Shown piece by piece: positions 1-15,740 of a stretch of DNA of 64,000 bases; the stretch's first letter is position 1, and each line of letters opens with the position of its first letter. The position numbers and the translations under genes are program-made. This DNA is from Spirochaetota bacterium (GTDB lineage Bacteria > Spirochaetota > Spirochaetia > SZUA-6), in assembly GCA_013151965.1 (NCBI GenBank), contig JAADHF010000135.1, positions 32,580 to 96,579 on the forward strand, in the 5' to 3' direction. The notes below the pieces were generated by a model, which worked only from the letters and a program-made list of their open reading frames with translations, was not told the DNA's origin and did not search any database.

Positions 1-405
1 ACACTTATAACACAGCGAATCACCGGAATCGATCAACAGAAACTTATTATTAGAGGAATGCGGGTTGTGGCAGGAGCTGCATTTATCCAGTGTGCCGTGT
101 TTGTACTTCCGTTCGAATTTATTCTTTACATCTTCATGGCAGGTATAACATAAATCAGGTTCTTTTGCTTTTAACCTCAGGCTTCCGACCAGACCATGGC
201 GCTCGTGACAGGCATCACAATTCCCTTTCTCTACAGGCGCATGTATATTCCCTGCTTCCTCAAACTTATTAACTTCCTTTCGATGACAATCCTGGCACGA
301 TCTGGCCGGACGCCTCGGCTGATACGCACACCCGGTAATCAGGGAAGTAAGAGCTCCAACAAAGATGAGGGAAGCAAAAACCATATATTTTCGATTAATC
401 GTCAT
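1..405 (-). CDS. Multiheme c-type cytochrome, lipoprotein (N-terminal 135 aa only; continues past the window start)
   Basis: Manual minus-strand translation from ATG at 405..403 gives MTINRKYMVFASLIFVGALTSLITGC (lipobox), then CQDCH, CDACH, CYTCH, CSSCH and CYKC cut by the window edge. It is absent from the ORF track because there is no stop in the window. It starts 15 nt after the PPIase stop. Confidence 0.8.
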   Translation of the reverse strand, partial: MTINRKYMVFASLIFVGALTSLITGCAYQPRRPARSCQDCHRKEVNKFEEAGNIHAPVEKGNCDACHERHGLVGSLRLKAKEPDLCYTCHEDVKNKFERKYKHGTLDKCSSCHNPHSSNNKFLLIDSGDSLCYKC

Positions 406-420
406 ATTCCCGGTAATCTC

Positions 421-1905
421 CTATTTAATAATTTTCCTGTCGGCATAAAGACCGGCCGACAGAACGTCCTTGTAAATCTTAATTTTGGAGCCTTTTTTAA
501 GAATTTTGATCCATCTCTCTACCTCCGCTTTTCTTTTTATTTTCAGCAGAAGTTCCCTGACCTTTTCATAAACTTCCTTGAAAGGCTGAACCTTTCCTTT
601 CTTAAAATCCTCCGCTTTAAGGATATGCCAGCCGAATCTTGTTTTAACGGGACCGGAAATTTCACCCGGTTTTAAGGAAAAAGCAGCTTTCTCAAATTCC
701 GGAATTACAGTACCCCGGACTATATATCCCAGATCTCCGCCTTTAGAAGCTGAAAAGTCGATAGATTTCTCCCTTGCAAGTACCTTAAAATCCTCTCCCT
801 TCTTTAATTTTTCCAGTATATCCTCCGCCTCTTTTTTGGTGCTCACCAGAATATGTCTTATTTTGACCCTGTCCGGCTCCCTGAACTCATCCTTGTGAGA
901 TTCGTAGTAAGCCTCTGTTTCGTCCTTAGTGAGATGCACACCTTCAATTATTTCTTTATATAGTTTTTCATAGACAGCTTCCCTTTTAAAATTGCGTACA
1001 GCGGCAATGATATCCGGCAGATTATCATATCCCCGTTTCAGGGCTTCCAGCTTAAGAAGCTTCCGGGCTAAAACAAGATCACTGCTGTGATGCGGCATCA
1101 GAGGATCTTTGCCGGCAGATACGGCATATTTCTTTTTTAACTCATCTATAAATTCCTTGTACCTCTTATTTCTCTTTCTTAACTTTAGAATTCGTTTTAT
1201 ATCATTCTTTACCTTGCTAAAATCCTTTTTTTCGAAATTTTCCTTTTCATCCGCCCTCAGGACACAATAATAGCCCGGACGGACTTTAACAGGACCGCTC
1301 ACAGCCCCGGAAGAAAGAGAAAAAACCACTTTTTCGATTTCAGGGTCCAATGTGCCCCACCTTACAAAACCCAACAGTCCTCCCTCAGATGCTGAGGGAT
1401 CGATGGATTTCTCTCTTGCCAGCTCACTGAAATTCCTGCCCTTTCCAAGTTCCTTTAATACTTCTTTCGCTTCCTCCTCGGTCTTAAGAAGAATCCAGCT
1501 TACTTTAACAGCCCTTCCGTAAAACCGGGAATATATCTCTTCGATCTCCGAACCGGAAACAGTAACTTTTTTATTCACCTCATCGTTGTATAATCTGTCG
1601 ATTATTCTATCGGTTCTATACTGATCTGCCTTTCTGATTATCTCAGGGTCTTTATCCAGTCCGATCCGGTATCCCTCCTGAATAATCAGAACTTTATCTA
1701 TCTCTGCATTGAGAAACCTTAACCTGTCGGTTTCGCTTTCCAGCAGGGCCAGGTGTCCCGAATGCCGCTTCTCGAATCTTCCCTTAAGATCCTGCACTGT
1801 TATCGATTCCCCGTTTATCCTGGCAACGACCTGCTTTCCGCCTCCCGGCAAGGAGGTGCACCCGGTAAAATTCAGCAGCAGTAAGATACCCAGAAGCAGC
1901 TTCAC
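421..1905 (-). CDS. SurA/PrsA-like peptidyl-prolyl isomerase lipoprotein with two parvulin (PpiC) domains
   Basis: The N-terminus MKLLLGILLLLNFTGC has a lipobox. There are two PpiC-like segments (VKVSWILLKTEEEAKEV...GPVKVRPGYYCVLR and VKIRHILVSTKKEAEDI...GPVKTRFGWHILK). Confidence 0.85.
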   Translation of the reverse strand: MKLLLGILLLLNFTGCTSLPGGGKQVVARINGESITVQDLKGRFEKRHSGHLALLESETDRLRFLNAEIDKVLIIQEGYRIGLDKDPEIIRKADQYRTDRIIDRLYNDEVNKKVTVSGSEIEEIYSRFYGRAVKVSWILLKTEEEAKEVLKELGKGRNFSELAREKSIDPSASEGGLLGFVRWGTLDPEIEKVVFSLSSGAVSGPVKVRPGYYCVLRADEKENFEKKDFSKVKNDIKRILKLRKRNKRYKEFIDELKKKYAVSAGKDPLMPHHSSDLVLARKLLKLEALKRGYDNLPDIIAAVRNFKREAVYEKLYKEIIEGVHLTKDETEAYYESHKDEFREPDRVKIRHILVSTKKEAEDILEKLKKGEDFKVLAREKSIDFSASKGGDLGYIVRGTVIPEFEKAAFSLKPGEISGPVKTRFGWHILKAEDFKKGKVQPFKEVYEKVRELLLKIKRKAEVERWIKILKKGSKIKIYKDVLSAGLYADRKIIK

Positions 1906-1908
1906 TCT

Positions 1909-3825
1909 TTACCTCTCCCTTTCTTTTATTTTAAACTTTAAAGTCTTTATCCATTTTTCGGCATTATTGACTGCCCGCTGATCATCCGAGTTTTCCGCGA
2001 TATCTTTATATACACTCAAAGCCTTCTCTAAGGACATCTGCTGATAAAATATACCGGCCATATTCATTTTAGCCCTGTCCGCATAGGCACCGCCTAAGGA
2101 AATAAGCTTTTTAAGGGTTTTTACAGCACCCTTTAAATCACCCTGGCTCTTGTATATATTGGCTGTATGGAATAGAGACTTCTCTGTGATTACTTTATCA
2201 TTTCCGGAAGAGATTTTACTGTAAATTTTTAAAGCCTCTGTAAACCTGCCCAGTTCCTCATAGCACCTGGCCACCTTATAAATTATCCTGTCATCAGTCT
2301 TTTCCCCGGCAGCAAAACCGGCCAGTTCGATCAGAGCCTGCCTGTACTTCCCGGAGGAATAGTAAATATCCCCTAACTTAAGCCGAATATCATCCGCACT
2401 CTTACCACTCAGTTTAGATTTATCCGCTTTTAAGAAAAAATTCCGGGCCTGCCCGCGGTCTCCCAGGTTCCAATAAGACAACCCCATCCTGTACTCGATC
2501 TCTTCTATTAATAACCCTTCTGATTTTTCACCGGAAGCCTTCTGAAAAGCTGCTTGAAAGTGACTGATAGACTCTCTCCACCTTTTAAGGTTCTGTAACG
2601 ACAGACCTGCCAGGTATTCCGCCTGCCGGATATTCTTATCGGAAGGGAACTTCTTTATAAAGCCGTACAGGGTTTTCAGAGAATCCTCATAATCTTTAAG
2701 CCGGTACCGGCTTTCTCCCAGGCGCATGACCGCCTCCGGAACAAGCCGGCTTTCAGGATACTTAGTTAAATAATTCTTATAGAAGTCCAGGGCTTTACCG
2801 TATTCTCCTTTATCAAAGAACAGGTTCCCCATCTCCAGGTAAGCATCACCTGCCCACCGGCTATTAGAACCTGCGGCTGCTTTCTGCAGTTCATTAAGAG
2901 CCTTACTGTAATTCTTTAAGATCCTGTTAATGCGGCCGATCCTGAAACGGATTTCCAGTGTCCTGCTGTCCGGATATTTTATCCTGTACCTCTGCCAGGA
3001 AGCCAGAGCTTTATCCTCCATCCCCGACTTTTCATACGAAATCCCCAACATGTACATCAAATTCATAGAGGACTGCCGGTCTGCTGAACTTTTAAGGGCG
3101 TACTCCAGTTTTTGAACAGCTAAATCGTAACTGCCCCTATTGTAGTAAAGCTTTGCCAGCCTGACGCCTATATCTTCTCCGTCATCTGTTTTTACGGCAC
3201 TGCCGGATTTACCGCTGCCGCGGGGCGGATTCCGCAAAGTTAAAAGCATTTCGGCAACAGTCTTTTCTGCCAGGGCATTTACAGAACGTATTTCCCCGAT
3301 ATCTAAAATCGCCGCCCTGTCATCACCATAACGGGAGTTAACCGCCGACCAGATAACCTCACCGCTTTTTGTATCGAGCATACGGGCATCTATCCTTACT
3401 GCCGGAATTCCTTTTTTCGGGCCGCTTACTTCTTCCCCGTATTCCTCCACAGATCCCACAATGACACCACCGGCATTAAGTTCTTTCCTGAAAGCATAGA
3501 GCGTCTCGAAGTCGATCTCCCCTTTTACCTTAACTCTTTTTTCCAGGAGGAGAGCACGTGCATCACCCGGTTTTACAATCCCGAATCTTCCCATTTTGTT
3601 TAATTCAACTACAAACATATTCCTCACAACATCGCCTGCGCCTTTGCTGCCGCTTAAGTTTTCGAAAGGAAGGACAGCAATCAATTTTAAATCCTTCCAG
3701 TCTTTATCTTTCTTCATATATATACCTGGATGCATACAGGCATTCAAAAAGGACATGAGCATCACAACAAGCAAGATTCTTCCCGTCCTGATGAGGATTT
3801 TTTTTTGACTTAAAATGAGCTTCAT
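1909..3825 (-). CDS. Lipoprotein: N-terminal CsgG/LpoB/TolB-N-like domain fused to a long TPR array
   Basis: The start is re-called at the internal Met (MKLILSQKK...LMSFLNAC lipobox), 1 nt after the upstream stop at 3827..3829. The N-terminal domain IAVLPFENLSGSKGAGDVVRNMFVVELNKMGRF...VIVGSVEEYGEE...ARMLDTKSGEVIWS is paralogous to the two upstream genes. The remainder is TPR-like repeats. Confidence 0.7.
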   Translation of the reverse strand: MKLILSQKKILIRTGRILLVVMLMSFLNACMHPGIYMKKDKDWKDLKLIAVLPFENLSGSKGAGDVVRNMFVVELNKMGRFGIVKPGDARALLLEKRVKVKGEIDFETLYAFRKELNAGGVIVGSVEEYGEEVSGPKKGIPAVRIDARMLDTKSGEVIWSAVNSRYGDDRAAILDIGEIRSVNALAEKTVAEMLLTLRNPPRGSGKSGSAVKTDDGEDIGVRLAKLYYNRGSYDLAVQKLEYALKSSADRQSSMNLMYMLGISYEKSGMEDKALASWQRYRIKYPDSRTLEIRFRIGRINRILKNYSKALNELQKAAAGSNSRWAGDAYLEMGNLFFDKGEYGKALDFYKNYLTKYPESRLVPEAVMRLGESRYRLKDYEDSLKTLYGFIKKFPSDKNIRQAEYLAGLSLQNLKRWRESISHFQAAFQKASGEKSEGLLIEEIEYRMGLSYWNLGDRGQARNFFLKADKSKLSGKSADDIRLKLGDIYYSSGKYRQALIELAGFAAGEKTDDRIIYKVARCYEELGRFTEALKIYSKISSGNDKVITEKSLFHTANIYKSQGDLKGAVKTLKKLISLGGAYADRAKMNMAGIFYQQMSLEKALSVYKDIAENSDDQRAVNNAEKWIKTLKFKIKERER

Positions 3826-3826
3826 T

Positions 3827-4390
3827 CTAAAATTCCGGTATGGAAGCAACCATTTTCCTGATAATAATCCGCGACAACTCCTGGGCGGTAGAGACCTTGC
3901 CGAAACCGAAGAACCCCTTAAAATCCTCGCCCGTATATGCAAGGGAACTACTCCATAAAATATCGGTTGTGTTGAGATCGATCATAACCAGATTGATTCC
4001 CACTTCAGGGTTTTCTCCCGAGTCATACTGCTCCACACGGCCTATAATAAGCCCCTCGATTCCGAGCTCTTTCTTTAGCTTTCGTGCCAGGGAGGTCGAT
4101 ACCATGTCCAGACACCGCAGTCTTTCCATTTCCAGAAACTTCTCCACCTTTCCCGGATCTGTCAAAATATACCTGCCGGACTTTAAAAGTTCCAGCTTCA
4201 GAACATTCCCGACCTTCTCTTCCGCAAGGAAGCTGCCGCTCAAGTTTACCAATGGCATGACCCCTATTTTAATTCTCTGCACTTCCTTTTTACTTCCGGA
4301 GGAATAGGAAAACACAGGACAGACCATCAAAATTATAAACACGGCAATTGCAACCGGGATCCTTAACAGATATTTTCCCGTAAAGCACAC
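3827..4390 (-). CDS. Secreted/lipoprotein, CsgG/LpoB-like single-domain paralogue
   Basis: It has a hydrophobic N-terminus. IGVMPLVNLSGSFLAEEKVGNVLKLELLKSGRY...LIIGRVEQYDSGENPEVGINLVMIDLNTTDILWS matches the shared motif pattern of its neighbours. It lies 2 nt from the upstream gene. Confidence 0.6.
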   Translation of the reverse strand: MCFTGKYLLRIPVAIAVFIILMVCPVFSYSSGSKKEVQRIKIGVMPLVNLSGSFLAEEKVGNVLKLELLKSGRYILTDPGKVEKFLEMERLRCLDMVSTSLARKLKKELGIEGLIIGRVEQYDSGENPEVGINLVMIDLNTTDILWSSSLAYTGEDFKGFFGFGKVSTAQELSRIIIRKMVASIPEF

Positions 4391-4392
4391 AT

Positions 4393-4998
4393 CTATTTCT
4401 CCGCAGGAATTTGTATGACAAGCGACCTCACCATCTGCCTGATCACTTTTCGGGTAAGTTCGCTTATATAAGGGGTTTCACCGATTCCCAGAAAGCTGAC
4501 CGTAGATCCCCCGCCCTCCGAGTTACTGCTCATCCAGATAACGATATCTGTATTTGTATCTACCATACGCAGGTTAATGGCTACTTCGGGAAAAGATCCC
4601 GCCCCTGTAGAAACGGATTTATTGTATTCCTCGACAACACCAAAGATGATAGCCTGAACACCGAGGCTCTTTCCAAGCTTTTTAATCATGGATGCATCGA
4701 TATTATCCGGCTTATCGATCTTCATTTCACTTAACACTTTTTCCATTTCACCGAATTCCAGCACATCGAAGTAACCCAATGACAAAAGCTCGGTAACAAA
4801 TATGTCCCTGACTTTTTGTTCGGCATGCGGACTGTCCGTCAGATTTAAAAACGGCATTACCGCGACCCTTTTAATGGACAAAAAATCTGCGTTCGGATGG
4901 ACATAGGATTTGGACCGAATCCCTGCGCATCCCTCGATTATCACAAGTGAAAGAATTAACACGCTTGCAGTCAGCAGGTTTTTCATTATACTCACCAA
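4393..4998 (-). CDS. Lipoprotein, CsgG/LpoB-like single-domain paralogue
   Basis: The signal peptide and lipobox are LSLVIIEGC. VAVMPFLNLTDSPHAEQKVRDIFVTELLSLGYF...IIFGVVEEYNKS...PEVAINLRMVDTNTDIVIWM follows the same pattern as 3827..4390 and the N-terminus of 1909..3825. Confidence 0.6.
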   Translation of the reverse strand: MVSIMKNLLTASVLILSLVIIEGCAGIRSKSYVHPNADFLSIKRVAVMPFLNLTDSPHAEQKVRDIFVTELLSLGYFDVLEFGEMEKVLSEMKIDKPDNIDASMIKKLGKSLGVQAIIFGVVEEYNKSVSTGAGSFPEVAINLRMVDTNTDIVIWMSSNSEGGGSTVSFLGIGETPYISELTRKVIRQMVRSLVIQIPAEK

Positions 4999-5080
4999 AT
5001 CCTTTATATTTCACAGTTTTATCAGCGATATTAAGCACAGGCAGAGACTTAGGCCGATTATACAAAGCCCCCCCTCTTAT

Positions 5081-5545
5081 TCAGGGGTACAACCTCCGTC
5101 CGGTGTCATGGCAGCCGCTCTGATTGCAGCTTATATAATCCCCCCCTGTGGTTAAAAATCCCATTCCCGTTCCCAGGGATGAAGAACTCTTTTCACCATA
5201 CAGTATCGTAAAATAGTACCGCTCATCGGTGTCGAGACCGGTTATAACAAAATTACCGAAACTATCCGTCTCCGCCTTAAAAAAACTCTTGTTGTCATCC
5301 GACACAGCCGTAACCACAGCTCCTTCGGCTGCAGAACTGCCGATGAGGTCTATAAAAACCGTCCCGGCAGCTGTGTCGGCCTCATACGTTCCCATATTGA
5401 ATTCTGTTCCTCTGGTTTCGTGACACGGACTATAGCAGTCATATCCGTTCTTGTGATATGAACTGTTTCCGGATGAGGTCGACTCAATATTACAGGCCGT
5501 AATAAACATTAAGCTTACTATCAGGCATCCTAAACGTATCTTCAT
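5081..5545 (-). CDS. Small lipoprotein with CX3CH and CX4CH motifs flanking a carboxypeptidase-regulatory-like beta-sandwich segment
   Basis: MKIRLGCLIVSLMFITAC has a lipobox. The motifs are CYSPCH (CX3CH) and CNQSGCH (CX4CH). The middle segment FFKAETDSFGNFVITGLDTDERYYFTILY looks like a CarboxypepD_reg-type fold. It is the first gene of the minus operon. Confidence 0.55.
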   Translation of the reverse strand: MKIRLGCLIVSLMFITACNIESTSSGNSSYHKNGYDCYSPCHETRGTEFNMGTYEADTAAGTVFIDLIGSSAAEGAVVTAVSDDNKSFFKAETDSFGNFVITGLDTDERYYFTILYGEKSSSSLGTGMGFLTTGGDYISCNQSGCHDTGRRLYP

Positions 5546-5562: not shown

Positions 5563-5591
5563 ATTTTATAAAAAAAAAGTCAATATGTCAA
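5563..5591 (-). promoter_or_regulatory. Candidate sigma70 promoter for the minus-strand lipoprotein/PPIase/cytochrome operon
   Basis: On the minus strand: TTGACA (5591..5586), 17-nt spacer, TAAAAT (5568..5563). The ATG of 5081..5545 lies about 18 nt downstream of the -10. Confidence 0.4.
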
Positions 5592-5609: not shown

Positions 5610-5637
5610 TTGACATTATATTTATTTATGCTAAAAT
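5610..5637 (+). promoter_or_regulatory. Candidate sigma70 promoter for the cytochrome/beta-barrel/ccsBA operon
   Basis: TTGACA (5610..5615), 16-nt spacer, TAAAAT (5632..5637), about 105 nt upstream of the ATG at 5744 in an AT-rich divergent intergenic region. Confidence 0.45.
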
Positions 5638-5743
5638 ATTCACGATAAGTAAATAAACTAAGTATATGTGTTCTTTTATAAATTAAATTACTGTTATTTT
5701 GATTAAGAATGCAGATTTATGCTTTTTAGAGGAGGGTAAGTGT

Positions 5744-6721
5744 ATGAGAAAAAAATTGATTCTTTCCATCTGTGCGGTTGTGTTTCTGGCCTATCCAGTC
5801 CTGGCGGTTCACAAAGGAGCCGGCGGACTGGACTGTTCCGGGTGCCATATTATGCACGGCAGCGTGGATGGTACGAATGTGGGCACACAGGACTATCTGC
5901 TCAGAGGCTCTACGCAGTCTCTCTGCCTTTCCTGTCATGACAGTACAGGATCTAACTATACAACCTATTCAGGTACAGTCCCGGTAGTTAAGGATGCCAC
6001 AGACAGCCCTGCAAGCGGAGACTTTGCGAATCTGGACCCGACCAACGATGCACCGGGCACCCTTAATTCGGGCAATGGCCACAACCTTGGTGAGGGCGGA
6101 AGCTCTGTAACCCCGGCAGGCGGATCTCCAATCTCCGGCTTTACATGCACTAACTGCCACGATCCCCATGGTGCGGGAGCCACGGACACCTCTACTGTAT
6201 CTGCTTACAGGAACCTTAAATTTACACCTGTGGGGGGAAGCACAACGGTATCGGTAATAAGGGCTCTGCCCCTGGAAGGTACTTTAAGCGGCGATGTGTA
6301 TCCGTTAGCTGACAATTCCTATGGTACCGCCGGAGCCGGAATAAGCAACATATCAGCCTGGTGCGGCTCCTGCCACACTAACTTCTTCGGTGATGCCAAT
6401 ACGGGAACCGGTTCCCCATTTACCAGACACCCGACATCCAATAGTACGACACTGTATACGCTTGGTGATGTCGATTTCAGCAACTATTATGCAGTTGCCG
6501 AAGGCAGCAGGTACCCTGCCGAAGATACGGCATCGAGCACTAACGCTAACTCCGGTAACGCCACCAACAAGTCCGCGGGGAACGAGGCTACCGACAGTGT
6601 TTTCTGTCTTTCCTGCCATAAGCCCCATGCCAGTGCGAATCCCGATGCTCTGCGGTGGAGCTATGCTCAGACAGCTCAATTATCCCCGGCCAGTGCCTGC
6701 CAGCAGTGCCATAACAAATAA
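5744..6721 (+). CDS. Secreted hexaheme c-type cytochrome, OmcS-like
   Basis: The start is re-called at MRKKLILSICAVVFLAYPVLA (GGAGGG RBS upstream). There are six CXXCH motifs (CSGCH, CLSCH, CTNCH, CGSCH, CLSCH, CQQCH). The mature protein has exactly 12 Cys and 12 His. The motif order and flanks (VHKGAGGLDCSGCHIMHGS, LLRGSTQSLCLSCH, CTNCHDPHG, AYRNL, WCGSCH, RHP, CLSCHKPHAS, CQQCH at the C-terminus) resemble OmcS as I recall it. Confidence 0.85.
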   Translation: MRKKLILSICAVVFLAYPVLAVHKGAGGLDCSGCHIMHGSVDGTNVGTQDYLLRGSTQSLCLSCHDSTGSNYTTYSGTVPVVKDATDSPASGDFANLDPTNDAPGTLNSGNGHNLGEGGSSVTPAGGSPISGFTCTNCHDPHGAGATDTSTVSAYRNLKFTPVGGSTTVSVIRALPLEGTLSGDVYPLADNSYGTAGAGISNISAWCGSCHTNFFGDANTGTGSPFTRHPTSNSTTLYTLGDVDFSNYYAVAEGSRYPAEDTASSTNANSGNATNKSAGNEATDSVFCLSCHKPHASANPDALRWSYAQTAQLSPASACQQCHNK

Positions 6722-6741: not shown

Positions 6742-6781
6742 GTATAGATCATCCCGGTTAAATCCCGGTGATGATCTATAC
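6742..6781 (+). other. Intercistronic stem-loop (perfect 12-bp inverted repeat)
   Basis: GTATAGATCATC (6742..6753) pairs with GATGATCTATAC (6770..6781). The 16-nt loop CCGGTTAAATCCCGGT can itself pair CCGG/CCGG. There is no downstream T-tract. It lies between the hexaheme gene stop and the beta-barrel start. Confidence 0.5.
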
Positions 6782-6808: not shown

Positions 6809-8485
6809 ATGAGGAAGTACATATCCACAGTCCCGGCTGTTGTATTGGCAGTATTTTTAACAGCCAATATCTGTTACGGGGAGCTGCAGGGGGTTATGTC
6901 CCTGACTACACGGAGCAGGGTTGATACTGACAGTACAAAGACATGGACTTATGCTCCGTTTCTGAATATAAACTTCCAGGATCAGATAGCTGCCGGAACC
7001 AGGATTACAACAGGACTCCAGGCCCAGCTTGGCAGCTCACAGACCGAAGGGTATAAACCTTTATATACAGGAAGGCTCTTTCCGTCCTTCGATTTTACTA
7101 CGAGCAACAGCCGGTACAGTTTTAACGGCGGCTACCGTCATATCATCAATTCCGGCGAATCCGAAGTCCCCTTCCTCATAGAGGAGTTAACCCAGACACA
7201 ATTATTTTATTCAGGCTTGTCGCTTCCGCTTTCGGATCTTCCTTCTTTTAACCTGCAGGGCAGGCAAATTCATAATTTCAGCCTGAACGGGACAAAAAAT
7301 GATTTAAGGGATTCGATAGGCTTAAACTCCGGTTACTCTGCAGGCTTATTCGATATTTCGGTTAATGCAGGGTGGAATAGATATAAGGACTACATCAATC
7401 TATCAGGAGGAATTCCATACGAAGAGAACAACTTTAATGAAACAGTAAATACAAACATAAATTATCAGCCGGCTTCCAGGATAACAGTCAAAGGGAAAGC
7501 AGGCTTAAGCGGGTATCAGAGCAGACGCGGATTTGCAAATAACACCGATCTAAACAGAAACAGCAGTTACTACACCGATTCCACATTATTACTCAAGTTT
7601 ACGGACAGTGTCTCGACAACCGGAAATCTCTCCTGGAACCGAACGGACAGAGAAACGGAAACCGGAAGTACGGTTACAAAACTTCCGCCTGTGGAATCCA
7701 TAAGGGGCGGGGGAGGGATTTATCTTAAACTCTACAAGTTTCTTTTTTCCAATATCAGCTACCAGGGACAGTGGCAGATCGGAGAGAATGCAGCTGTCAA
7801 TACAGCAGGTATCGGATTGGATTTTATTCCTTTTAAAACCATGAAAACATCCCTTGTCTATGGTCTTTCGGAAACAAGCAGGGACTCCGGGAAACTTACA
7901 AGGTCGGACAAGATTTCCTTTTCTGCAAAGGGAAAGGTCTATGACAGGGTAGATATAAACTCCTTCTTGCAGTACAATCGTATCGATGACTATAAGCAGG
8001 ATGTAATCATGACACTCTGGATGGCGGGTTCCAAAATTAAATCCAGACTGATCGATGATTGGCTGGTTAAAAGCATGGACGTCCAGGCGGGATACAACAG
8101 GATGTGGCAGATAATCGATCTCGGAGGGGAAAGAGAGGTTTTAATTATCGATGTTACAAATATTTCCGTACATTCCAGGATGACAAGGGTAATCGGGATC
8201 TCGGGGAAATGGAGCTGGAATAATAAACCCGGCGGGCTTAGTTTAACCCAGCAGTATGCCATGGAGTGGCTTCCGTTAAAAAAAATGCGGCTTAGCGTGG
8301 GGTATGGGATCACCGGCAGCACGGATAAAAGTATAAAGGAGGATATATCCGCCAGAGCAAATTTATCACTCCCGAAGAATTATACACTGTCGGCTGCTTT
8401 CGGCAGCGTTCTTAACAGGGATAATCCGGAGTCTCCCAGGAACGGATCGTACACATTTTCGGCAACAATCTCGGCGAGTTTTTAA
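6809..8485 (+). CDS. Outer-membrane beta-barrel protein (porin-like), unknown family
   Basis: It has a signal peptide (MRKYISTVPAVVLAVFLTANICYG), many short alternating amphipathic strands rich in Y/G/S/N/T, and a C-terminal ...YTFSATISASF ending in Phe, which is an OMP beta-signal. It sits between two multiheme cytochrome genes. Confidence 0.65.
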   Translation: MRKYISTVPAVVLAVFLTANICYGELQGVMSLTTRSRVDTDSTKTWTYAPFLNINFQDQIAAGTRITTGLQAQLGSSQTEGYKPLYTGRLFPSFDFTTSNSRYSFNGGYRHIINSGESEVPFLIEELTQTQLFYSGLSLPLSDLPSFNLQGRQIHNFSLNGTKNDLRDSIGLNSGYSAGLFDISVNAGWNRYKDYINLSGGIPYEENNFNETVNTNINYQPASRITVKGKAGLSGYQSRRGFANNTDLNRNSSYYTDSTLLLKFTDSVSTTGNLSWNRTDRETETGSTVTKLPPVESIRGGGGIYLKLYKFLFSNISYQGQWQIGENAAVNTAGIGLDFIPFKTMKTSLVYGLSETSRDSGKLTRSDKISFSAKGKVYDRVDINSFLQYNRIDDYKQDVIMTLWMAGSKIKSRLIDDWLVKSMDVQAGYNRMWQIIDLGGEREVLIIDVTNISVHSRMTRVIGISGKWSWNNKPGGLSLTQQYAMEWLPLKKMRLSVGYGITGSTDKSIKEDISARANLSLPKNYTLSAAFGSVLNRDNPESPRNGSYTFSATISASF

Positions 8486-8492
8486 AAATATT

Positions 8493-9824
8493 ATGATTGA
8501 TAAAAGATTTTTAATAACTTCAGTTTTGATTATTCTGATATCCGGTCTCTCACCGGTGATATACGGGGATGATGTATTTACTCAGACCGAACACGGAGGA
8601 ACAAACATAAATTCCGATGCCTATGTCCTCGCAGGTTCCTGCGGAACCTGTCATACACAGCACAACAGCCAGGACGGTGCGCCTGTATCCGGAAGCGGAC
8701 CGTTTAAATATCTTCTTAACGGCGCCAATAATAACAGCTTCTGCACTAACTGCCACCTGGACAGTTCGATAGGTACTCCTCCGGGAAGGCCCCCTTTTGA
8801 AAAACTATGGGCCGGTGAAACAAAATATAACGCATCGGCACACGGCACAAGCCTCTTTAAGACTAATCCGGACACGGGATTCGATCTGCCGCTCTGCCTG
8901 GCATGTCATGATCCCCACGGCAGAGGAACGGGTACTCCTTACCCCGCTCTTCGTGCCAATAATGAGGAAAACCTCTGCTATGCCTGCCACGACAGCAATG
9001 GGCCCGCTCAGAATGATATAAAATCAAAGATGCAGGGAACCGCTACATCCACAAGCCCCGTATCCGGAAGTTCGGCCAAAATTAATACCCGCCATGATAT
9101 AAGTCTCTCCGATCAAAACTGGAGCGGAGCAAAGATAGAATGCAAAGACTGCCACAACCCTCATCTTAACAACAGTAGTTATAACGGAGTGGATAAATCC
9201 AGGGTGCGTGATCCGGCCGTCGATCCTTCTACGGCTGCAGGCGCAGCAAACTTTATCGACACCTACAATGTAAATGACCCTGACAGGCCCGGAGATTTAG
9301 ACCCCAACATTTTACCGGAATCTCCTGCCAGTCCGGTACCGGATTATATAGATTTCTGCCTGGTGTGCCACGACGGCAGCTACCCTTCCTGGATTAATCC
9401 CGGAACCAACCCGCCGGCTGTTATAAACTGGGAATCCACAAGCGGAAATTATCACGGCGGCAAGTACGGAGGCGGGAACTCCGGCCAGGGTTACCTTAAA
9501 AGCCGGACAGTCGGGGATCCGGGTTATGTGGCAGGCTACACAGGAGCGGATTACCAGAATCCGGGCTCATATACTGCTGCAGATTCTTATGCTCCGATGC
9601 TCTGCACGGACTGTCATGATCCCCACGGAGTTAACAACAATCTTTTTATGATTAAAAAAACAATCAACGGAAAATCGGGCATAACCTGGACGAACGGCGG
9701 AGTAATATATTACAAAATGTGTACCGCCTGTCACAAAATGACAGGCAAAAAGCACACTATGAAATATGGTGAATCATCGACCTGCAGCCGGCAGTTTCAC
9801 TCACATACAGGAAGCGACTTTTAA
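8493..9824 (+). CDS. Secreted octaheme c-type cytochrome (N-terminus paralogous to the hexaheme)
   Basis: It has a signal peptide and eight CXXCH motifs (CGTCH, CTNCH, CLACH, CYACH, CKDCH, CLVCH, CTDCH, CTACH). The N-terminal TEHGG...CGTCHTQHNS...YLLNGANNNSFCTNCH parallels the first two heme sites of 5744..6721. Confidence 0.85.
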   Translation: MIDKRFLITSVLIILISGLSPVIYGDDVFTQTEHGGTNINSDAYVLAGSCGTCHTQHNSQDGAPVSGSGPFKYLLNGANNNSFCTNCHLDSSIGTPPGRPPFEKLWAGETKYNASAHGTSLFKTNPDTGFDLPLCLACHDPHGRGTGTPYPALRANNEENLCYACHDSNGPAQNDIKSKMQGTATSTSPVSGSSAKINTRHDISLSDQNWSGAKIECKDCHNPHLNNSSYNGVDKSRVRDPAVDPSTAAGAANFIDTYNVNDPDRPGDLDPNILPESPASPVPDYIDFCLVCHDGSYPSWINPGTNPPAVINWESTSGNYHGGKYGGGNSGQGYLKSRTVGDPGYVAGYTGADYQNPGSYTAADSYAPMLCTDCHDPHGVNNNLFMIKKTINGKSGITWTNGGVIYYKMCTACHKMTGKKHTMKYGESSTCSRQFHSHTGSDF

Positions 9825-9855
9825 CAGCATGTTCCCCGCGCGGAGAGGCGGTATA

Positions 9856-10335
9856 ATGGCCGTACCGGACAGAAAATCTATAATAACCGGTCTTATCTTT
9901 ATCCTGGTAATCGCAGGCACAGGAACTTTATATATAATTTATTCAGCGAATCTAAGATCCGGACAGGCAGCCGGCCATTTGAGCCGGGGGATAGGATACA
10001 TAAAAAACGGAAAGAATATAGAAGCGGTAACCGAACTAGAAAAAGCTATTTCCATAAAACCCGGCCTGTGGAAGGCATATTACTACCTCGGAGGAATCTA
10101 CCTTAAGAAGAACATGCTCTCCGAGGCCGGAAAAGAATTCGCAAAGGCCCTGAAACTGAAACCCGCCATGCCGGAAATTTATAACGCTCTGGGAATCGTT
10201 TATTTTAAAATGGGTAAAGTGGATGCGGCAACTGCCTATTTCCAGGCATCCCTAAGACTGAATCCCTTAAACGAACAGGTAAACGCTATCCTGGAAACAA
10301 TAAACGGCAGGGGAATGAAACAGACAAAAAAGTGA
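9856..10335 (+). CDS. Membrane-anchored TPR protein
   Basis: MAVPDRKSIITGLIFILVIAGTGTLYIIY is an N-terminal TM segment, followed by 3-4 TPR motifs (KAYYYLGGIYLKKNMLSEAGKEFAKALKLKP...). An alternative start is at 9829. Its stop overlaps the GTG start of ccsB. Confidence 0.7.
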   Translation: MAVPDRKSIITGLIFILVIAGTGTLYIIYSANLRSGQAAGHLSRGIGYIKNGKNIEAVTELEKAISIKPGLWKAYYYLGGIYLKKNMLSEAGKEFAKALKLKPAMPEIYNALGIVYFKMGKVDAATAYFQASLRLNPLNEQVNAILETINGRGMKQTKK

Positions 10336-11675
10336 AGGTATATAAATTTTTAATATCACCGAAGTTTGTCATTCTCCTTCTTCTTGCTATATCCGTCCTC
10401 TCGATACTGGGAATATTTATACCCCAGGGAGAGGGAGATTTATTTTATGCCAAACACTACGGGCTGGGAAAGGCAGTGCTCTTTTTAGGATTAAACAACC
10501 TGTACAATCTCTGGTTTTATAAACTGTTGTACTTGTTCCTCGGCATCGATCTGATCCTGTGCTCGGTGAAAAGAATAGGATACCTGCGTAAGATATTTTC
10601 TAATCCTGAGGAAGAATTAAATCTGAAACCGAACCGTTATGAGAAAAAAATAAGGCTTGACGGCGGTATTCAGGATACGGCTGTTAAGATTTGCAGGCTC
10701 CTTAAACACTCGTTCTACAGAGTTAAAAGCAAAAGAATCGATAACGGAAATAAAACATCCATTCTCGCAGGCAGAGGGAAAATAAGCACCTTTGGAAGTA
10801 CCATAGTCCATGGCGGTATTTTAATCATAATATTTTACACTTTTTTTTGGGGCACATCCGGATACGGGCGCTATGTTAAAATCGTGGAGGGAAACAGTTA
10901 TGTCGAACCCTCTGAAAATTTTCTGGTAAGAGTGGACAAGATAAGACTGGACTACTACAAACCTGGAAAAGATGTGTCTTCTGCCGGTGAGTTTCGATTA
11001 AAGAATGCCCAGGCGACGCTGTCTGTTTTAAAAGACGGTAGTTCTGTGCAGACAACCAGAACACTTAGAATCGGCGAAAGATTAAAATACAAAGGCATAA
11101 ACTTTAAACTGGATTACAAAGGATTCGGATGGGCATATAGAATACTGCTTACCAATTCGTCCGGCTGGCAATGGACCCTCTCCGTCTGGCCATGGAACCC
11201 GGTAATTTCCCTGTCAAAATTAAACTGGATGATATACCTGCATAATCTTTATCCTGATTTTGCACTGGATGATAAAGGAAATCCTTATTCCAAAACTCCC
11301 TACCTCCGAAATCCTGCAGCTAAAATCTGGATTCAGCAGGGAACAAAGAAACCGGAGCTTATCGGATGGTTAAAGTCCGATGCACCCTTGAAGTTTAAAG
11401 GTTATACTCTGAAGATGGTCGATCTTCGGCCCTACGCTTCCGTTTATGTCAGTAAAAAGCCCGGTATTCCATTTATCTGGGCCGGCTTCGGATTAATTAT
11501 TGCCGGCCTGTTATTGATATACGGCCTGGATTACAGAATAATCAGGATAATAGTTTCAACCGGCAGAGGGGCAGAAGACATACTGATAACCGGTACAAGT
11601 ACAAAAACGGGCAACAATCTCAAAAAGGATATCGAGACTATTGCTGCCGGAATAGAAGCCGGAAAGGAGTTATGA
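10332..11675 (+). CDS. ccsB: Cytochrome c biogenesis protein CcsB/ResB (System II)
   Basis: The GTG start overlaps the upstream stop. The ResB-like N-terminus is FLISPKFVILLLLAISVLSILGIFIPQG. It has a large soluble loop and a C-terminal TM (GIPFIWAGFGLIIAGLLLIYG). It is immediately upstream of ccsA with an ATGA overlap. Confidence 0.85.
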   Translation: MKVYKFLISPKFVILLLLAISVLSILGIFIPQGEGDLFYAKHYGLGKAVLFLGLNNLYNLWFYKLLYLFLGIDLILCSVKRIGYLRKIFSNPEEELNLKPNRYEKKIRLDGGIQDTAVKICRLLKHSFYRVKSKRIDNGNKTSILAGRGKISTFGSTIVHGGILIIIFYTFFWGTSGYGRYVKIVEGNSYVEPSENFLVRVDKIRLDYYKPGKDVSSAGEFRLKNAQATLSVLKDGSSVQTTRTLRIGERLKYKGINFKLDYKGFGWAYRILLTNSSGWQWTLSVWPWNPVISLSKLNWMIYLHNLYPDFALDDKGNPYSKTPYLRNPAAKIWIQQGTKKPELIGWLKSDAPLKFKGYTLKMVDLRPYASVYVSKKPGIPFIWAGFGLIIAGLLLIYGLDYRIIRIIVSTGRGAEDILITGTSTKTGNNLKKDIETIAAGIEAGKEL

Positions 11676-12475
11676 TGGGTATTGAATCAATTTTTTTAAG
11701 TATAGCCTTCGCTTCATATTTTTTAGCTGCAATCGCTTATGTTATATTTTTAGTTACAAAATGGGAACCGGCCGGGAAAACCGGCAGCCTTATCGCCTTT
11801 GCAGGACTGATCTGCCACACTATTGCCCTTGTGTCCCGTATAATCATAGCGAAACGCCTCGTGGGCTACAACTTTTACGAATACATGTCCGTATTCGCCT
11901 GGGGTACAGTCCTGGTATACCTGATTGCGGAAAGGAAAACAAAGCTCAGAATTATCGGCGTATTTGTACTTCCTGTAGTAATCCTGCTTCTGGGCTATGC
12001 CTCCGTACTGCCGAAAAATATAACACCCCTTGTTCCGGCTTTAAGGAGTTACTGGCTGCAGATCCACATTATTACTACGGTAGTATCATACAGCTCATTT
12101 ACTCTCTCCTTTGGTGCAGGGATAATATACCTTATAAGAAAAAAACTGCCTTTTAAGGCAGAAACCGGTGCACTGGAGATAGTTATATCCAGGGCTATAA
12201 TTTTCGGTTTTCCCTTTCTGACCATCGGCATCCTTTCCGGCGCAATCTGGGCTCAATATATCTGGAACAGGGCATGGAGCTGGGACCCCAAGGAAACCTC
12301 CTCCCTGGTTACCTGGTTGGTCTATGCCGCTTATCTCCATACCAGGCTTGCAAGGGGATGGAGCGGGAAACGTGCTGCAATTTTAAGTATCATAGGCTTT
12401 GCCTGCGTTATTTTTACCTACCTGGGGGTGGACCTTCTTGTTCCCAGGGCTCATACCTTCCTTTTTAACAAATAA
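11672..12475 (+). CDS. ccsA: Cytochrome c-type biogenesis protein CcsA/ResC (heme handling, WWD motif)
   Basis: It is polytopic. The Trp-rich heme-handling motif is GAIWAQYIWNRAWSWDPKETSSLVTWLVYAAYLH. Confidence 0.9.
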   Translation: MMGIESIFLSIAFASYFLAAIAYVIFLVTKWEPAGKTGSLIAFAGLICHTIALVSRIIIAKRLVGYNFYEYMSVFAWGTVLVYLIAERKTKLRIIGVFVLPVVILLLGYASVLPKNITPLVPALRSYWLQIHIITTVVSYSSFTLSFGAGIIYLIRKKLPFKAETGALEIVISRAIIFGFPFLTIGILSGAIWAQYIWNRAWSWDPKETSSLVTWLVYAAYLHTRLARGWSGKRAAILSIIGFACVIFTYLGVDLLVPRAHTFLFNK

Positions 12476-12574: not shown

Positions 12575-13576
12575 ATGACAAAAGATCCCGCCGGACAAAA
12601 AGCAGTGCTTCTTAAGCGAGCCGATATTTTTTCATCCCTTATTCCCCATGAGATAGAAGTTATTGCCTGGAACAGTGATTTTTACGACTATAAAACCGGT
12701 GACCCGGTTTTTTCCAGGGGGGACCCCGGCAATACCCTCTATATCGTAGAATCCGGCGAAATCGTAGTTCAGAAGCAGGATGAGTCCGGCCGGAAAACCG
12801 ATATAGCCCGTTTTGTCCAGGGCAACTGTTTCGGAGAACTCGATCTGTTCACCGGAACATCCAGAATTGCTTCCGCTTTCGCATCTGTCGAAACACGGCT
12901 TTTGGAATTTCCCAAATCCGGCATAGAATTTACAGCGATTCTCGATAAACATCCGGCTCTGTCTGCCCGGATCCTCCACAAAATTCTAGCGGAGATTGCC
13001 GTGCGAATCCGCAGGGCCAACACCCTCATCAAAGAGAATTCTCCCCTGGTGCAGGAAATGAGAAGGCAGGTGTATAGAGACAAGCTTACAGGGTTATTTA
13101 ATCGAACCTATCTCTTAGAAAAAATAAGGGAACTTATCGATAAAAACAGTTCCGGCTTTTCTCTTCTGATAACAAAACCGGACAATTTTAAGGCTTTAAA
13201 CGACACTTACGGCCACGAAGCGGGAGACACGGCTATCAGCATTATGGCAAGGGGATTACGGGATTTTATCGGGGATGACAACAGGACAGCAAGGTACAAG
13301 GGTAATGCCATGGCAGTACTTATTCCGGGGGGTACAAAAGAGGAAGCTTACAACCAGGCTCTGCGTATCCGGGAATTCATGAACAACCTCGATGTAACCG
13401 GAGCAACGAAAGGAAAGGAATTCCGCATTACCGCCAGCACCGGCATCGCATGTTTCCCTGACCACGGCATTAACGCTGAAGATCTTGTATTTAAAACTCA
13501 TGAGCTTTCTCTTGCAGGCAGACGCAGGGGGGGAAATCTCATCCTGTTTCCGGAAGATGCCGGGGAGCGGAAATGA
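12575..13576 (+). CDS. Cyclic-nucleotide-binding domain protein with a degenerate GGDEF domain
   Basis: The cNMP-binding signature is GNCFGELDLFTGTSRIASAFA. The GGDEF fold is present (LTGLFNRTYL, FKALNDTYGHEAGD), but the active-site pentapeptide is KGNAM (ARYKGNAMAVL) and no RxxD I-site is in register. Confidence 0.8.
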   Translation: MTKDPAGQKAVLLKRADIFSSLIPHEIEVIAWNSDFYDYKTGDPVFSRGDPGNTLYIVESGEIVVQKQDESGRKTDIARFVQGNCFGELDLFTGTSRIASAFASVETRLLEFPKSGIEFTAILDKHPALSARILHKILAEIAVRIRRANTLIKENSPLVQEMRRQVYRDKLTGLFNRTYLLEKIRELIDKNSSGFSLLITKPDNFKALNDTYGHEAGDTAISIMARGLRDFIGDDNRTARYKGNAMAVLIPGGTKEEAYNQALRIREFMNNLDVTGATKGKEFRITASTGIACFPDHGINAEDLVFKTHELSLAGRRRGGNLILFPEDAGERK

Positions 13577-14550
13577 AAAGGACTCCCGTTGATGTACTTA
13601 GATCGATCGAAATTCTCTCTTCTCTTTCCCGGGAAGAACTGGATTCGCTTTATTCACTTATGAACACCGAAGAATACCTAAAAGGGCAAACCCTTTTCAA
13701 CGAAGGCGATAACGGCGAAATCATGTATATCATACTTTCCGGATCGGTTTCCATATCCGTAAATCTGCCGGACGGGAAAGTGCTGGAGATCGCAGAGATT
13801 ACAGAGGGTAATTTCTTCGGGGAGATGTCCATTTTCGACAGTGCGGCAAGGTCCGCTACATGCTCTCCTAAATGCGACACAAAAGTACTCAGCCTTAAAG
13901 CAGGTGATTTTTACAAATTCATAAAAAACAAACCGGAGGCCGGTATAAATATCATGCGCCGTATGCTGAATATTACCACCATGCGTCTTGAAAAAACCGG
14001 TGCATTTCTGTCGGATATGGTCACCTGGGGAGAACAGGCAAGGACCCGGGCAATTACCGATGATTTTACAGGGCTGTATAACCGCCGGTTTCTCGATGAG
14101 GCAATAAAAGACCGTATTACCGAGGCAATGGATAAAAGCCTTCCTCTCTCCATTGTCATGATCGATCTGGATCATTTCGGAACATTGAACAATGAATACG
14201 GACAGGATATGGGAGACAGGGTAATCCTGGCAATTGTCCCGATTTTCAGAAAACTGTTTAGAAAGGAAGATATTCTTGCCCGGTACGGAGGTGATGAGTT
14301 TACCTTTCTTCTGCCCGGAACTACGGGCGCAGAAGCCCGGGATATCTGTTCGAAGCTGGTAAGGGAAGTCCGGAAAATCGACCTGCTTAAGAATCTCGAC
14401 GGATCGCTGAAGAAAGTTACTGCCAGTATCGGCATCGCATGTTTTCCTGATCATGCCGACTCGGCTTCCCGGATCAAAGAAAGGGCCGACCAGGCACTCT
14501 ACAAGGCAAAGGAAGCCGGGCGGGATACCGCAGTTCTCTGGACAAACTAA
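13573..14550 (+). CDS. Cyclic-nucleotide-binding domain diguanylate cyclase (intact GGDEF and I-site)
   Basis: The cNMP-binding signature is GNFFGEMSIFDSAARSAT. The GGDEF domain has RKED (RxxD) five residues before ARYGGDEF. It has an ATGA overlap with the upstream paralogue. Confidence 0.85.
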   Translation: MKRTPVDVLRSIEILSSLSREELDSLYSLMNTEEYLKGQTLFNEGDNGEIMYIILSGSVSISVNLPDGKVLEIAEITEGNFFGEMSIFDSAARSATCSPKCDTKVLSLKAGDFYKFIKNKPEAGINIMRRMLNITTMRLEKTGAFLSDMVTWGEQARTRAITDDFTGLYNRRFLDEAIKDRITEAMDKSLPLSIVMIDLDHFGTLNNEYGQDMGDRVILAIVPIFRKLFRKEDILARYGGDEFTFLLPGTTGAEARDICSKLVREVRKIDLLKNLDGSLKKVTASIGIACFPDHADSASRIKERADQALYKAKEAGRDTAVLWTN

Positions 14551-14561
14551 AGGGAGGGTAC

Positions 14562-15740
14562 ATGACAAAAACCCGAATGACAAGCATCAAAAGAAGAAAT
14601 CTGATTATTAATCACATCCTGGAGGCAATTACGGAACGGGACTGTTTCCTTATCATGGGTCACAAGAATCCTGATGAGGATTGTATTTCTTCAATGATTG
14701 CCATAAGCCTGCTGCTGAACAAGTTTTCGAAAATTGCGTACCTGATGGTTCCCGGAAAAATAAATAGAAATTATCAGTATCTTCTTAATATCTGCAGGTA
14801 CAATGCAATCGAAATTCTCCACAACAAAGAGAAATTACCCCACGAGGTCTCTGCCGTGTTTATTCTGGACACACCTAAACCGGAGATGAGGGAAACATTT
14901 CCCGGTTCTGCCGGGATTTATAATAACAAGGATATCTTAAAAATTGAAATCGATCATCATCTCGGAGCGGACAGCGATTACATCGGCGACAAGGGTTACT
15001 GCCTTGTAGATGAAGCCTCTTCGGCAAGCGAGCTGGTAGGATTGATGGCGTTCAAACTGAAAAATCATAAAGACATCACCGGTTCCTTTAACATTCAGGA
15101 TCTGTTCTCCCGCAATTTTGTCCTGGCTGTACTTACAGGTATCATCGGTGATTCGAAAATGGGAAAGTATCTAAAAACCAGCAGGGAAAAATGGTTCTAC
15201 CGGTTATTCAGCAGCATGTTCAACGAAATGCTCACTAATAAAACCCGAAAGAATTCCGGAAATTTTTCTACCATGGACGAGGTATTTACCGAACTCCAGC
15301 AGTTGTCCCGGCAGGAGGATGAATGCTTTGCCATCATGATGAAACAGAAGGTGGATATCTCTCCGAAAATAGGATCGGTGATCATATCACAGGATGTGAT
15401 AAAACAGATGCGGACCCTCTTTGACAACGACACCATTGTTACAGTTGCCAGGTATGCTGCTGATTCCCTGGCAGAATCCAGCCGATCATTAAGTCTCGTC
15501 GCTTATTACGATGATAAGAAGGATTCCGATTTAATACAATTCCGCCTGCGAAGAAGCCATTCATACAAAGCCCTGGATCTCCGCAGTGTTCTCGAATTCT
15601 TTGACATAAAAAACGGAGGAGGCCACCCCGGGGCCATAGGTTTCCGGATACCTGAAGCGGAGATACCGGACATCTATGGATATGTGGAAACTCTTATAAA
15701 AGGGACAGAAAAACTGATGTCCCGGGCAGAGAGAGGATAA
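14562..15740 (+). CDS. DHH/DHHA1 phosphoesterase, NrnA-like (candidate nanoRNase/pGpG hydrolase)
   Basis: The DHH motifs are GHKNPDEDCISS, ILDT and IEIDHHLG. The DHHA1 motif is GGGHPGAIGF. Confidence 0.75.
   Translation: MTKTRMTSIKRRNLIINHILEAITERDCFLIMGHKNPDEDCISSMIAISLLLNKFSKIAYLMVPGKINRNYQYLLNICRYNAIEILHNKEKLPHEVSAVFILDTPKPEMRETFPGSAGIYNNKDILKIEIDHHLGADSDYIGDKGYCLVDEASSASELVGLMAFKLKNHKDITGSFNIQDLFSRNFVLAVLTGIIGDSKMGKYLKTSREKWFYRLFSSMFNEMLTNKTRKNSGNFSTMDEVFTELQQLSRQEDECFAIMMKQKVDISPKIGSVIISQDVIKQMRTLFDNDTIVTVARYAADSLAESSRSLSLVAYYDDKKDSDLIQFRLRRSHSYKALDLRSVLEFFDIKNGGGHPGAIGFRIPEAEIPDIYGYVETLIKGTEKLMSRAERG

Follow-up and report, generated by a model that had tools for sequence, protein, structure and literature searches.

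A predicted secreted, compact hexaheme cytochrome of the OmcS family and its osc-like gene neighbourhood in a Spirochaetota bacterium

The closest known counterpart of the protein reported here is OmcS of Geobacter sulfurreducens, a cytochrome whose subunits stack to form electrically conductive nanowires. All twelve axial ligands of its six hemes are histidines, eleven of which belong to the same subunit and one of which, at heme 5, is contributed by the neighbouring subunit (PMC6584659, PMC7096707). OmcE-type tetraheme cytochromes polymerise via a histidine that is donated to the heme of the adjacent subunit (PMC9473688). OmcS homologues have already been described as widespread (Portela 2024, PMC10954620; Murali 2023, PMC10553843); for those from environmental sources, both filament formation and cooperation with porin:cytochrome conduits are proposals made by homology only (PMC10553843, PMC10954620). 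A companion cluster of omcS has been described as well (Shen 2025 as cited in PMC13194489), and the citing paper assigns folding to OscH, secretion to OscE/F/G and morphology to OscD of the Geobacter osc operon (PMC13194489). Here we analyze a stretch of 64,000 nucleotides, called the window in the following, from a Spirochaetota bacterium (assembly GCA_013151965.1, contig JAADHF010000135.1, positions 32,580 to 96,579 of the forward strand; GC content 43.6%). The open reading frame (ORF) at 5744..6721 on the plus strand almost certainly encodes a secreted, compact hexaheme cytochrome of the OmcS family. We further suggest, with moderate confidence, that this protein polymerises into a conductive heme wire by ligation of its His38 to heme 5 of an adjoining subunit and that osc-like neighbours assist in the process.

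The reading frame, read directly from the sequence, comprises 325 codons and a stop codon. ATG 5744 is the likely start because the strong Shine-Dalgarno sequence AGAGGAGGG (5728..5736, plus strand, likewise read directly) sits 7 nucleotides upstream of it. A longer version starting at TTG 5699 is possible, without a comparable Shine-Dalgarno site. The first 21 residues form a predicted Sec signal peptide, MRKKLILSICAVVFLAYPVLA (5744..5806, plus strand), with the basic n-region MRKK, a hydrophobic core and V-x-A at -3/-1. An earlier note, made from the letters of this DNA, had placed the cleavage directly before an x-His start, and the site VLA21/VHK, ahead of V22-H23, fits this by sequence rule. 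Most family members likewise have one residue between an AxA, SxA or VxA site and an invariant histidine, as in mature OmcS (F1-H2). The precursor is therefore predicted to be cleaved to an x-His mature N-terminus.

The mature chain of 304 residues (5807..6721 including the stop codon, plus strand) contains six CXXCH motifs, which begin at residues 31, 61, 135, 207, 288 and 319 (5834..5848, 5924..5938, 6146..6160, 6362..6376, 6605..6619 and 6698..6712, plus strand). Every one of its 12 cysteines lies inside such a motif; the sole extra cysteine, C10, is part of the signal peptide. There are also 12 histidines, at positions 23, 35, 38, 65, 113, 139, 142, 211, 229, 292, 295 and 323, and a single methionine, M37. 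Serine, glycine, threonine, alanine and asparagine together make up 53% of the chain. The bookkeeping of the earlier note (six motifs, 12 Cys in the motifs, 12 His, a mature chain of about 304 residues) is thus reproduced by the sequence count, its remark that the loops are rich in Thr, Ser, Asn and Gly agrees with the composition, and the His codon of its CHIMH motif is indeed found at 5855..5857, that is, His38.

Several comparisons identify the family. OmcS (6ef8/6nef) is the only significant sequence match in the PDB (E = 3e-8, two collinear stretches). BLASTP aligns residues 22-308 of the query with OmcS 1-348 (358 columns, 26.5% identity, E = 1.9e-15); the OmcS sequence used for this agrees with 6ef8_A in all 407 residues. 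When 113 family members were combined into a profile, it matched OmcS with E = 9e-37 in one collinear stretch (OmcS 2-351) that covers five of the six motifs. A model of the monomer, predicted from the family alignment with AlphaFold2 (AF2), has a mean predicted local distance difference test (pLDDT) of 85 and a predicted template modelling score (pTM) of 0.84. When this model was compared with the PDB by Foldseek, 6ef8_A was the only match with E < 0.001 (E = 2.3e-6, probability 1.0). Family members also share residues that are not heme ligands, namely P80, G92, G143, Y193, R156-N157-L158 and V286-F287. Scans of the protein with Pfam and NCBIfam gave generic multiheme domains only, for example Paired_CXXCH_1. 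In the copy of the PDB that was searched, Geobacter OmcS was the only structure of the OmcS family found, and no compact member was among the matches. The OmcS homology and the OmcS order of motifs claimed in the earlier note are borne out: the six CXXCH motifs align one-to-one with those of OmcS, and no other cysteine is left in the mature chain. Its AYRxL motif fares less clearly. Pairwise phmmer does pair it with AYRIL of OmcS, but neither the MAFFT alignment nor the family profile does.

For the heme ligands, an alignment of 118 sequences was made by MAFFT L-INS-i; besides the query and OmcS it contains 116 homologues, each with six or more CXXCH motifs. Every one of the 12 cysteines and 12 histidines of the mature query is kept throughout (118/118). 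The motifs align with C9/C12/H13, C47/C50/H51, C140/C143/H144, C239/C242/H243, C328/C331/H332 and C400/C403/H404 of OmcS, and the six remaining histidines H23, H38, H113, H142, H229 and H295 align with H2, H16, H110, H147, H257 and H335. Their codons are found on the plus strand at 5810..5812, 5855..5857, 6080..6082, 6167..6169, 6428..6430 and 6626..6628, in this order. Since the 24 residues are invariant throughout and each of them matches a cysteine or histidine of OmcS, the Cys/His pattern is not due to chance. The check that the earlier note had proposed, an alignment to OmcS and to a family profile, therefore places both the heme motifs and the distal histidines on OmcS. We predict that six bis-His hemes are formed by the six CXXCH motifs and the six distal histidines. 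A mature chain with exactly 12 histidines is rare in the alignment (5/118 sequences), though not unique.

His38 deserves particular attention. It lies three residues past the ligand histidine of heme 1 and aligns with OmcS His16. Wang et al. 2019 reportedly identified this His16 as the swapped heme-5 ligand of OmcS. The suggestion of the earlier note that the histidine of CHIMH is a candidate inter-subunit ligand, for heme 5, agrees with the alignment, in which the position is invariant (118/118). If the hemes form a linear chain as in OmcS, heme 5 of the same subunit should on geometric grounds be out of reach for His38. Because there is no spare histidine and only one methionine, one heme would then be without a sixth ligand unless a partner chain supplies it. 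With no thirteenth histidine and a single methionine in the query, the swapped-ligand reading is more tightly constrained than for OmcS with its 17 histidines and 8 methionines. As the His16 equivalent does not vary, ligand-swapped assembly may well be ancestral to the whole family with its many phyla.

A word-indexed search returned 379 homologues, and an exhaustive search of 1.84 billion representatives returned 710 clusters at E <= 1e-3 and 159 at E <= 1e-10. Among 185,579 species genomes scanned, 254 encoded relatives were found, the best one in a Planctomycetia metagenome-assembled genome (MAG) with 58% identity. Relatives occur in Deltaproteobacteria/Thermodesulfobacteriota, Nitrospinota, Nitrospirota, Acidobacteriota/Thermoanaerobaculia, Planctomycetota, Poribacteria, Armatimonadota, Zixibacteria, Ignavibacteriales, Fibrobacteraceae and Anaeromyxobacter. 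The lengths of the best 120 homologues are bimodal, with one group at about 280-340 and the other at about 400-460 residues. Compact forms account for about 40% of the closest 116 relatives with at least six hemes. Short versions like this one are thus frequent among environmental bacteria, and the gene is a further member of a family whose wide distribution is on record.

The earlier note had put the difference to Geobacter OmcS at roughly 100 residues. It amounts to 103 residues (304 versus 407 in the mature proteins), and the losses are spread across the loops. The largest one affects the loop between the heme-5 and heme-6 motifs (H335..C400), which is reduced from 65 residues in OmcS to 24 in the query; the loop between the heme-3 and heme-4 motifs (H147..C239) is reduced from 92 to 65. 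The additional idea of the note that the protein may represent a minimal filament-forming unit is not supported. Apart from the share of compact forms given above, many relatives have a mature chain of only about 267-270 residues, counted from the invariant N-terminal histidine; ORFs of about 295 residues in Anaeromyxobacter MAGs belong to this group. We therefore rejected the query as the minimal family member on length statistics. In a rough neighbour-joining tree, computed without branch support, the query belongs to a small compact clade (282-317 residues) that is sister to long forms (360-448 residues); a second and larger compact clade is found elsewhere, and OmcS lies outside both. Tentatively, compactness may be ancestral or may have arisen more than once.

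As a separate observation, some relatives do not occur singly. Two or three OmcS-like hexaheme paralogues of differing lengths are neighbours beside a 42-heme cytochrome (7515..9814 in locus L006 and 3917..5008 in locus L040), and such multi-paralogue loci were seen in several genomes (Thermoanaerobaculia and Anaeromyxobacter MAGs).

We suggest that the assembly of the Spirochaetota protein could proceed in the following steps. The precursor would be exported by the Sec system and cleaved, leaving the V-H N-terminus. In the periplasm six hemes would be attached at the CXXCH motifs, probably by the ResB/CcsA pair of the cluster (see below). Folding would then give six bis-His hemes for which the own chain provides eleven ligands. 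The twelfth, the distal ligand of heme 5, would be His38 of the next subunit. From this completion of heme 5 a head-to-tail polymer would follow; as in the OmcS of Geobacter, heme 1 of each subunit would be stacked against heme 6 of an adjacent one.

For the later steps the neighbouring genes have to be considered. Divergently to the OmcS-like gene, on the minus strand, there are six genes. Nearest is a 154-residue lipoprotein (5081..5545, lipobox FITAC) with a weak Ig-like CarboxypepD_reg domain. It is followed by a CsgG-like lipoprotein of 201 residues (4393..4998, Pfam CsgG 1.8e-12), an LpoB/CsgG-like lipoprotein of 187 residues (3827..4390; the Pfam LpoB match is weak, with E = 0.0025 and 18.2 bits versus a cut-off of 22.3 bits) and a protein that combines TPR repeats with a CsgG-like domain at its N-terminus (1909..3942; TPR families, CsgG 3.5e-4). 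The latter is listed with 677 residues, and its real start is probably 3′ of the listed TTG. Farther out lie a SurA-like chaperone of 494 residues with two PpiC-type prolyl-isomerase domains (421..1905; Rotamase 1.5e-44, SurA_N) and the start of a further multiheme cytochrome (1..420), which has four CXXCH motifs in its first 140 residues and runs off the window. The 154-residue lipoprotein contains CYSPCH (CX3CH) and CNQSGCH (CX4CH), which are non-canonical candidate heme motifs; both are kept, as CYNPCH and CNRIGCH, in the orthologue of the 87%-identity clade on locus L082, and the other 79 loci yielded no homologue of this lipoprotein. The contig of the relative with 87% identity has an identical local gene layout.

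We searched with the window proteins (tblastn) within 10 kb of the OmcS-like genes of 81 loci, 80 of which were kept from the genome scan and do not include Geobacter. Many of these loci are incomplete, so the counts are lower bounds. Homologues of the CsgG-like and of the LpoB/CsgG-like lipoprotein were each found in at least 29/81 loci, of the CsgG-TPR protein in at least 26/81 and of the prolyl isomerase in at least 15/81. The octaheme cytochrome discussed below has homologues in at least 31/81 loci. The loci with such co-occurring neighbours span many phyla. No homologue of the 154-residue lipoprotein, of ResB or of the 558-residue protein (see below) was detected within this distance in the 81 loci.

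OscH is reportedly a prolyl-isomerase chaperone, OscEFG are said to be channel-like and OscD beta-propeller-like. By their domain types and order the neighbours in the window look like such an omcS-companion (osc) cluster. The divergently encoded chaperone and the CsgG/LpoB/TPR lipoproteins might accordingly aid folding and passage through the outer membrane. Elsewhere in the window, at 34745..35764 on the minus strand, a protein of 339 residues fuses a cyclophilin with an FKBP-type prolyl isomerase. This double prolyl-isomerase architecture is probably unrelated to the OmcS-like cluster.

On the plus strand the OmcS-like gene is followed by a gene for a 558-residue secreted protein that fits no known family (6809..8485), an octaheme cytochrome of 443 residues with eight CXXCH motifs (8493..9824), a TPR protein of 189 residues (9766..10335) and a ResB-like (10332..11675, ResB 7e-38) and a CcsA-like gene (11672..12475, Cytochrom_C_asm 2e-48). 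The last two are genes of System II cytochrome c heme attachment, and a CcsBA-type pair is thus encoded inside the cluster of the OmcS-like gene itself. In the Planctomycetia MAG locus L001 the cytochromes are also followed by ResB/CcsA, and NHL-repeat proteins are present as well. Directly after the cytochrome-biogenesis genes of the window, at 12575..15740 on the plus strand, we noticed two tandem genes with cyclic-nucleotide (cNMP)-binding and GGDEF diguanylate-cyclase domains and a DHH/DHHA1 phosphoesterase gene. Homologues of the GGDEF proteins are near OmcS-like genes in five other loci, and the arrangement suggests a possible control of the OmcS-like cluster by cyclic nucleotides.

The octaheme cytochrome is of special interest. 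Its N-terminal module is of the OmcS type (TEHGG...CGTCHTQHNS...LL...CTNCH), and only this two-heme module is common to the octaheme and the OmcS-like family (hhalign probability 99, residues 49-94). In many loci homologues with eight or nine hemes are encoded directly 3′ of OmcS-like genes, with mature N-termini of the form GGxYxxTxHG...CxxCHxxHAS. Moreover, in several other organisms both proteins occur as natural fusions. P0137 has 752 residues and 14 CXXCH motifs; its residues 7-300 are an OmcS-like unit (E = 1e-32 to the query) and its residues 305-654 a partner-type unit (E = 4e-22 to the octaheme of the window), which are joined without a linker (...CQQCHNQ/AYESTKHEN...CVHCHDEH). The same fusion is present in P0168 and in a 751-residue ORF of locus L020 (5481..7736), with the junction ...CQQCHN/xYxxTKH..., and P0224 is listed with these three among the octaheme fusion sequences. 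The His16 equivalent is retained at the N-termini of the fusion proteins (CSDCHTMH).

Since the fusion joins directly after the heme-6 motif, the mature N-terminus of the partner would occupy the position that the next subunit has in the OmcS filament. A review points out that heme 5 of a terminal OmcS monomer would be pentacoordinate and perhaps catalytic, and considers attachment of the monomer to an anchor in the membrane (PMC7096707). The octaheme is a candidate cap or anchor at the heme-6 end of a filament, where it could supply the ligand of heme 5. In our scheme it would dock on this end by its OmcS-type N-terminal module and so link the polymer to the envelope. A broader picture, which we regard as possible though rather doubtful, is that of a thin, minimally sheathed heme wire for which the partner with eight or nine hemes serves as cap or anchor at the heme-6 end, perhaps via a lineage-specific outer-membrane barrel. 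If true, it would give a sequence-derived answer to how cytochrome nanowires terminate, anchor and get charged. Capping and anchoring of nanowires are treated as unresolved in a review (PMC7096707).

The candidate for such a barrel is the 558-residue protein, whose gene sits between those of the two cytochromes and ends 7 nucleotides before the octaheme gene. It has no Pfam or NCBIfam match, and among 5.8 billion proteins there are only two homologues (89% and 86% identity), both of which adjoin an OmcS-like or multiheme gene. The protein is thus restricted to this lineage as far as sequence searches can tell. Its C-terminus, YTFSATISASF, with alternating hydrophobic residues and a terminal phenylalanine, resembles an outer-membrane beta-signal; possibly the protein is an outer-membrane beta-barrel. 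The AF2 model (pLDDT 27.5) is of very low confidence.

Some observations speak against polymerisation. The fold match to OmcS is only moderate, with a TM-score of 0.55 normalised by the query and 0.45 by the target length and a root-mean-square deviation of 7.4 A. The shortened loop before heme 6 may alter the subunit interface. Polymerisation is deduced from a monomer model and from sequence. The likeness to the osc cluster is one of domain types and order, and among the genes beside the OmcS-like gene in the window none has a Pfam match to NHL or beta-propeller (OscD-like) domains. Finally, OmcT, OmcJ and OscC are OmcS paralogues of Geobacter with the same family signature, and none of them is known to form filaments. 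Family membership is therefore no proof of filaments.

The main rival explanation builds on this last point. The protein could be a surface cytochrome of the OmcS family that does not form long filaments and instead pairs 1:1 with the octaheme, a histidine of which would complete heme 5, in or on the putative 558-residue barrel; it would then resemble the extracellular cytochrome of a porin-cytochrome complex. The gene order OmcS-like protein, putative barrel, octaheme, with the 7 nucleotides between the last two, would suit such a complex, as would the single-chain fusions of one OmcS-like and one partner unit with their 14 CXXCH motifs. OmcT and OmcJ are not known to form filaments. This explanation also accords with the proposal that OmcS-like cytochromes work with porin:cytochrome conduits (PMC10553843). 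The His16 equivalent is, however, invariant even in the fusions, so that the units can still donate a ligand onward. The barrel is only putative, given the missing family match and the poor model, and its gene is found in 0/81 loci, while the lipoprotein and prolyl-isomerase genes are widely conserved. We consider this arrangement unlikely, and we note that a 1:1 complex and a partner-capped filament are not mutually exclusive.

One can also imagine a monomeric protein that works as a sensor or redox enzyme, in which heme 5 is five-coordinate, bound by His292 only, and takes up a substrate or ligand. The count of 12 histidines would leave heme 5 without a distal histidine from its own chain if His38 is out of reach, and the pentacoordinate heme of the terminal OmcS monomer might be catalytic (PMC7096707). 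Nevertheless, His38 is invariant in all 118 sequences, which argues for a role as ligand, the protein has no catalytic-type motif (CXXCK, distal Lys or Tyr), and the neighbours are chaperone- and secretion-type genes rather than enzyme partners. We find this explanation highly improbable. That a low-complexity protein rich in Ser, Gly and Thr resembles OmcS in its motifs without being homologous hardly merits credence: multiheme profiles do give weak motif-driven matches, such as NrfA with the family profile (E = 1e-4 to 6e-3), and five amino acids make up 53% of the chain, but this notion is effectively refuted by the alignment of the ligands, the collinear profile match over five of six motifs, the conserved non-ligand residues and the independent fold prediction that retrieves OmcS alone, and the conserved gene neighbourhood speaks against it too.

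For the polymerising subunit that we favour, the expression signals are of some interest. Within the divergent intergenic region of 198 bp a consensus scan found two back-to-back near-consensus promoters. The one for the OmcS-like gene (5610..5637, plus strand) is sigma-70-like, TTGACA-16-TAAAAT with an extended -10 TG, and matches in 11/12 positions; its mirror image for the divergent operon (5591..5563, minus strand) is sigma-70-like as well and also scores 11/12. A stable hairpin (6742..6781, plus strand) with a stem of about 16 bp and without a U-tract separates the OmcS-like gene from its 3′ neighbour. Its folding energy of -27.3 kcal/mol (z = -4.6) was equalled by 0/200 shuffles. The scan found no canonical terminator after the OmcS-like gene, and the hairpin might terminate transcription in part or stabilise the mRNA. 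As pattern matches, the promoter, the Shine-Dalgarno sequence and the hairpin fit an abundant, highly expressed structural subunit.

With 24 residues for six bis-His hemes, no spare histidine and one methionine, the protein would be a clean small model. Such a model could be used to ask what the sheath contributes to conductivity, how ligands are swapped in polymerisation and how minimal heme wires might be engineered. The conserved and sometimes fused partner cytochrome offers a testable idea for the capping or anchoring of wires.

How does the locus compare with known systems? OmcS and OmcE have been described as lacking recognisable sequence similarity. The family profile does detect the OmcE-type proteins 7tfs_A (E = 1.9e-6) and 9yuq_N (E = 8.4e-7) weakly. 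The matched region comprises the first three heme motifs (CxxCHTPHN...LCLSCHDG...CxSCHxxHG), with E-values only two to three orders of magnitude better than that of the motif-driven match to NrfA (E = 1e-4). OmcE-type filaments (PDB 7TFS, 9YUQ) differ in having four hemes and show no similarity past the N-terminal module. With the porin-cytochrome conduits (MtrCAB, Pcc/Ext) the locus has in common a trio in which a putative outer-membrane barrel accompanies a cytochrome of extracellular type and a multiheme protein of periplasmic type. In contrast to these conduits, no porin family is matched by the 558-residue protein, and apart from generic multiheme domains the cytochromes show no relationship to MtrA or MtrC. 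The OmcS-like cytochromes of syntrophic sulfate reducers and uncultured bacteria are alike as homologues, whereas the query stems from a different lineage.

The osc cluster of Geobacter and the window look alike in having a prolyl-isomerase chaperone, three lipoprotein/TPR proteins, which may be channel-like here, and extra OmcS-related cytochromes beside the subunit gene. The window adds the ORFan putative barrel, the small lipoprotein with CX3CH and CX4CH and its own ResB/CcsA pair, and it is without an adjacent beta-propeller/NHL gene, while the Planctomycetia locus L001 has one.

The closest known system remains OmcS itself (Geobacter sulfurreducens, GSU2504, PDB 6EF8/6NEF). The two proteins differ in sequence (26.5% identity), in mature length (304 versus 407 residues) and in the numbers of histidines (12 versus 17) and methionines (1 versus 8). 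In addition, the assembly-type genes are divergently transcribed here, and the filament is a predicted one. What both proteins have in common is the order of the six CXXCH motifs, the six distal histidine positions, CxxCHxxH at motifs 1, 3 and 5, a last motif that lies two or three residues from the C-terminus and, as predicted for the query, the x-His mature N-terminus and a mostly loop-built fold.

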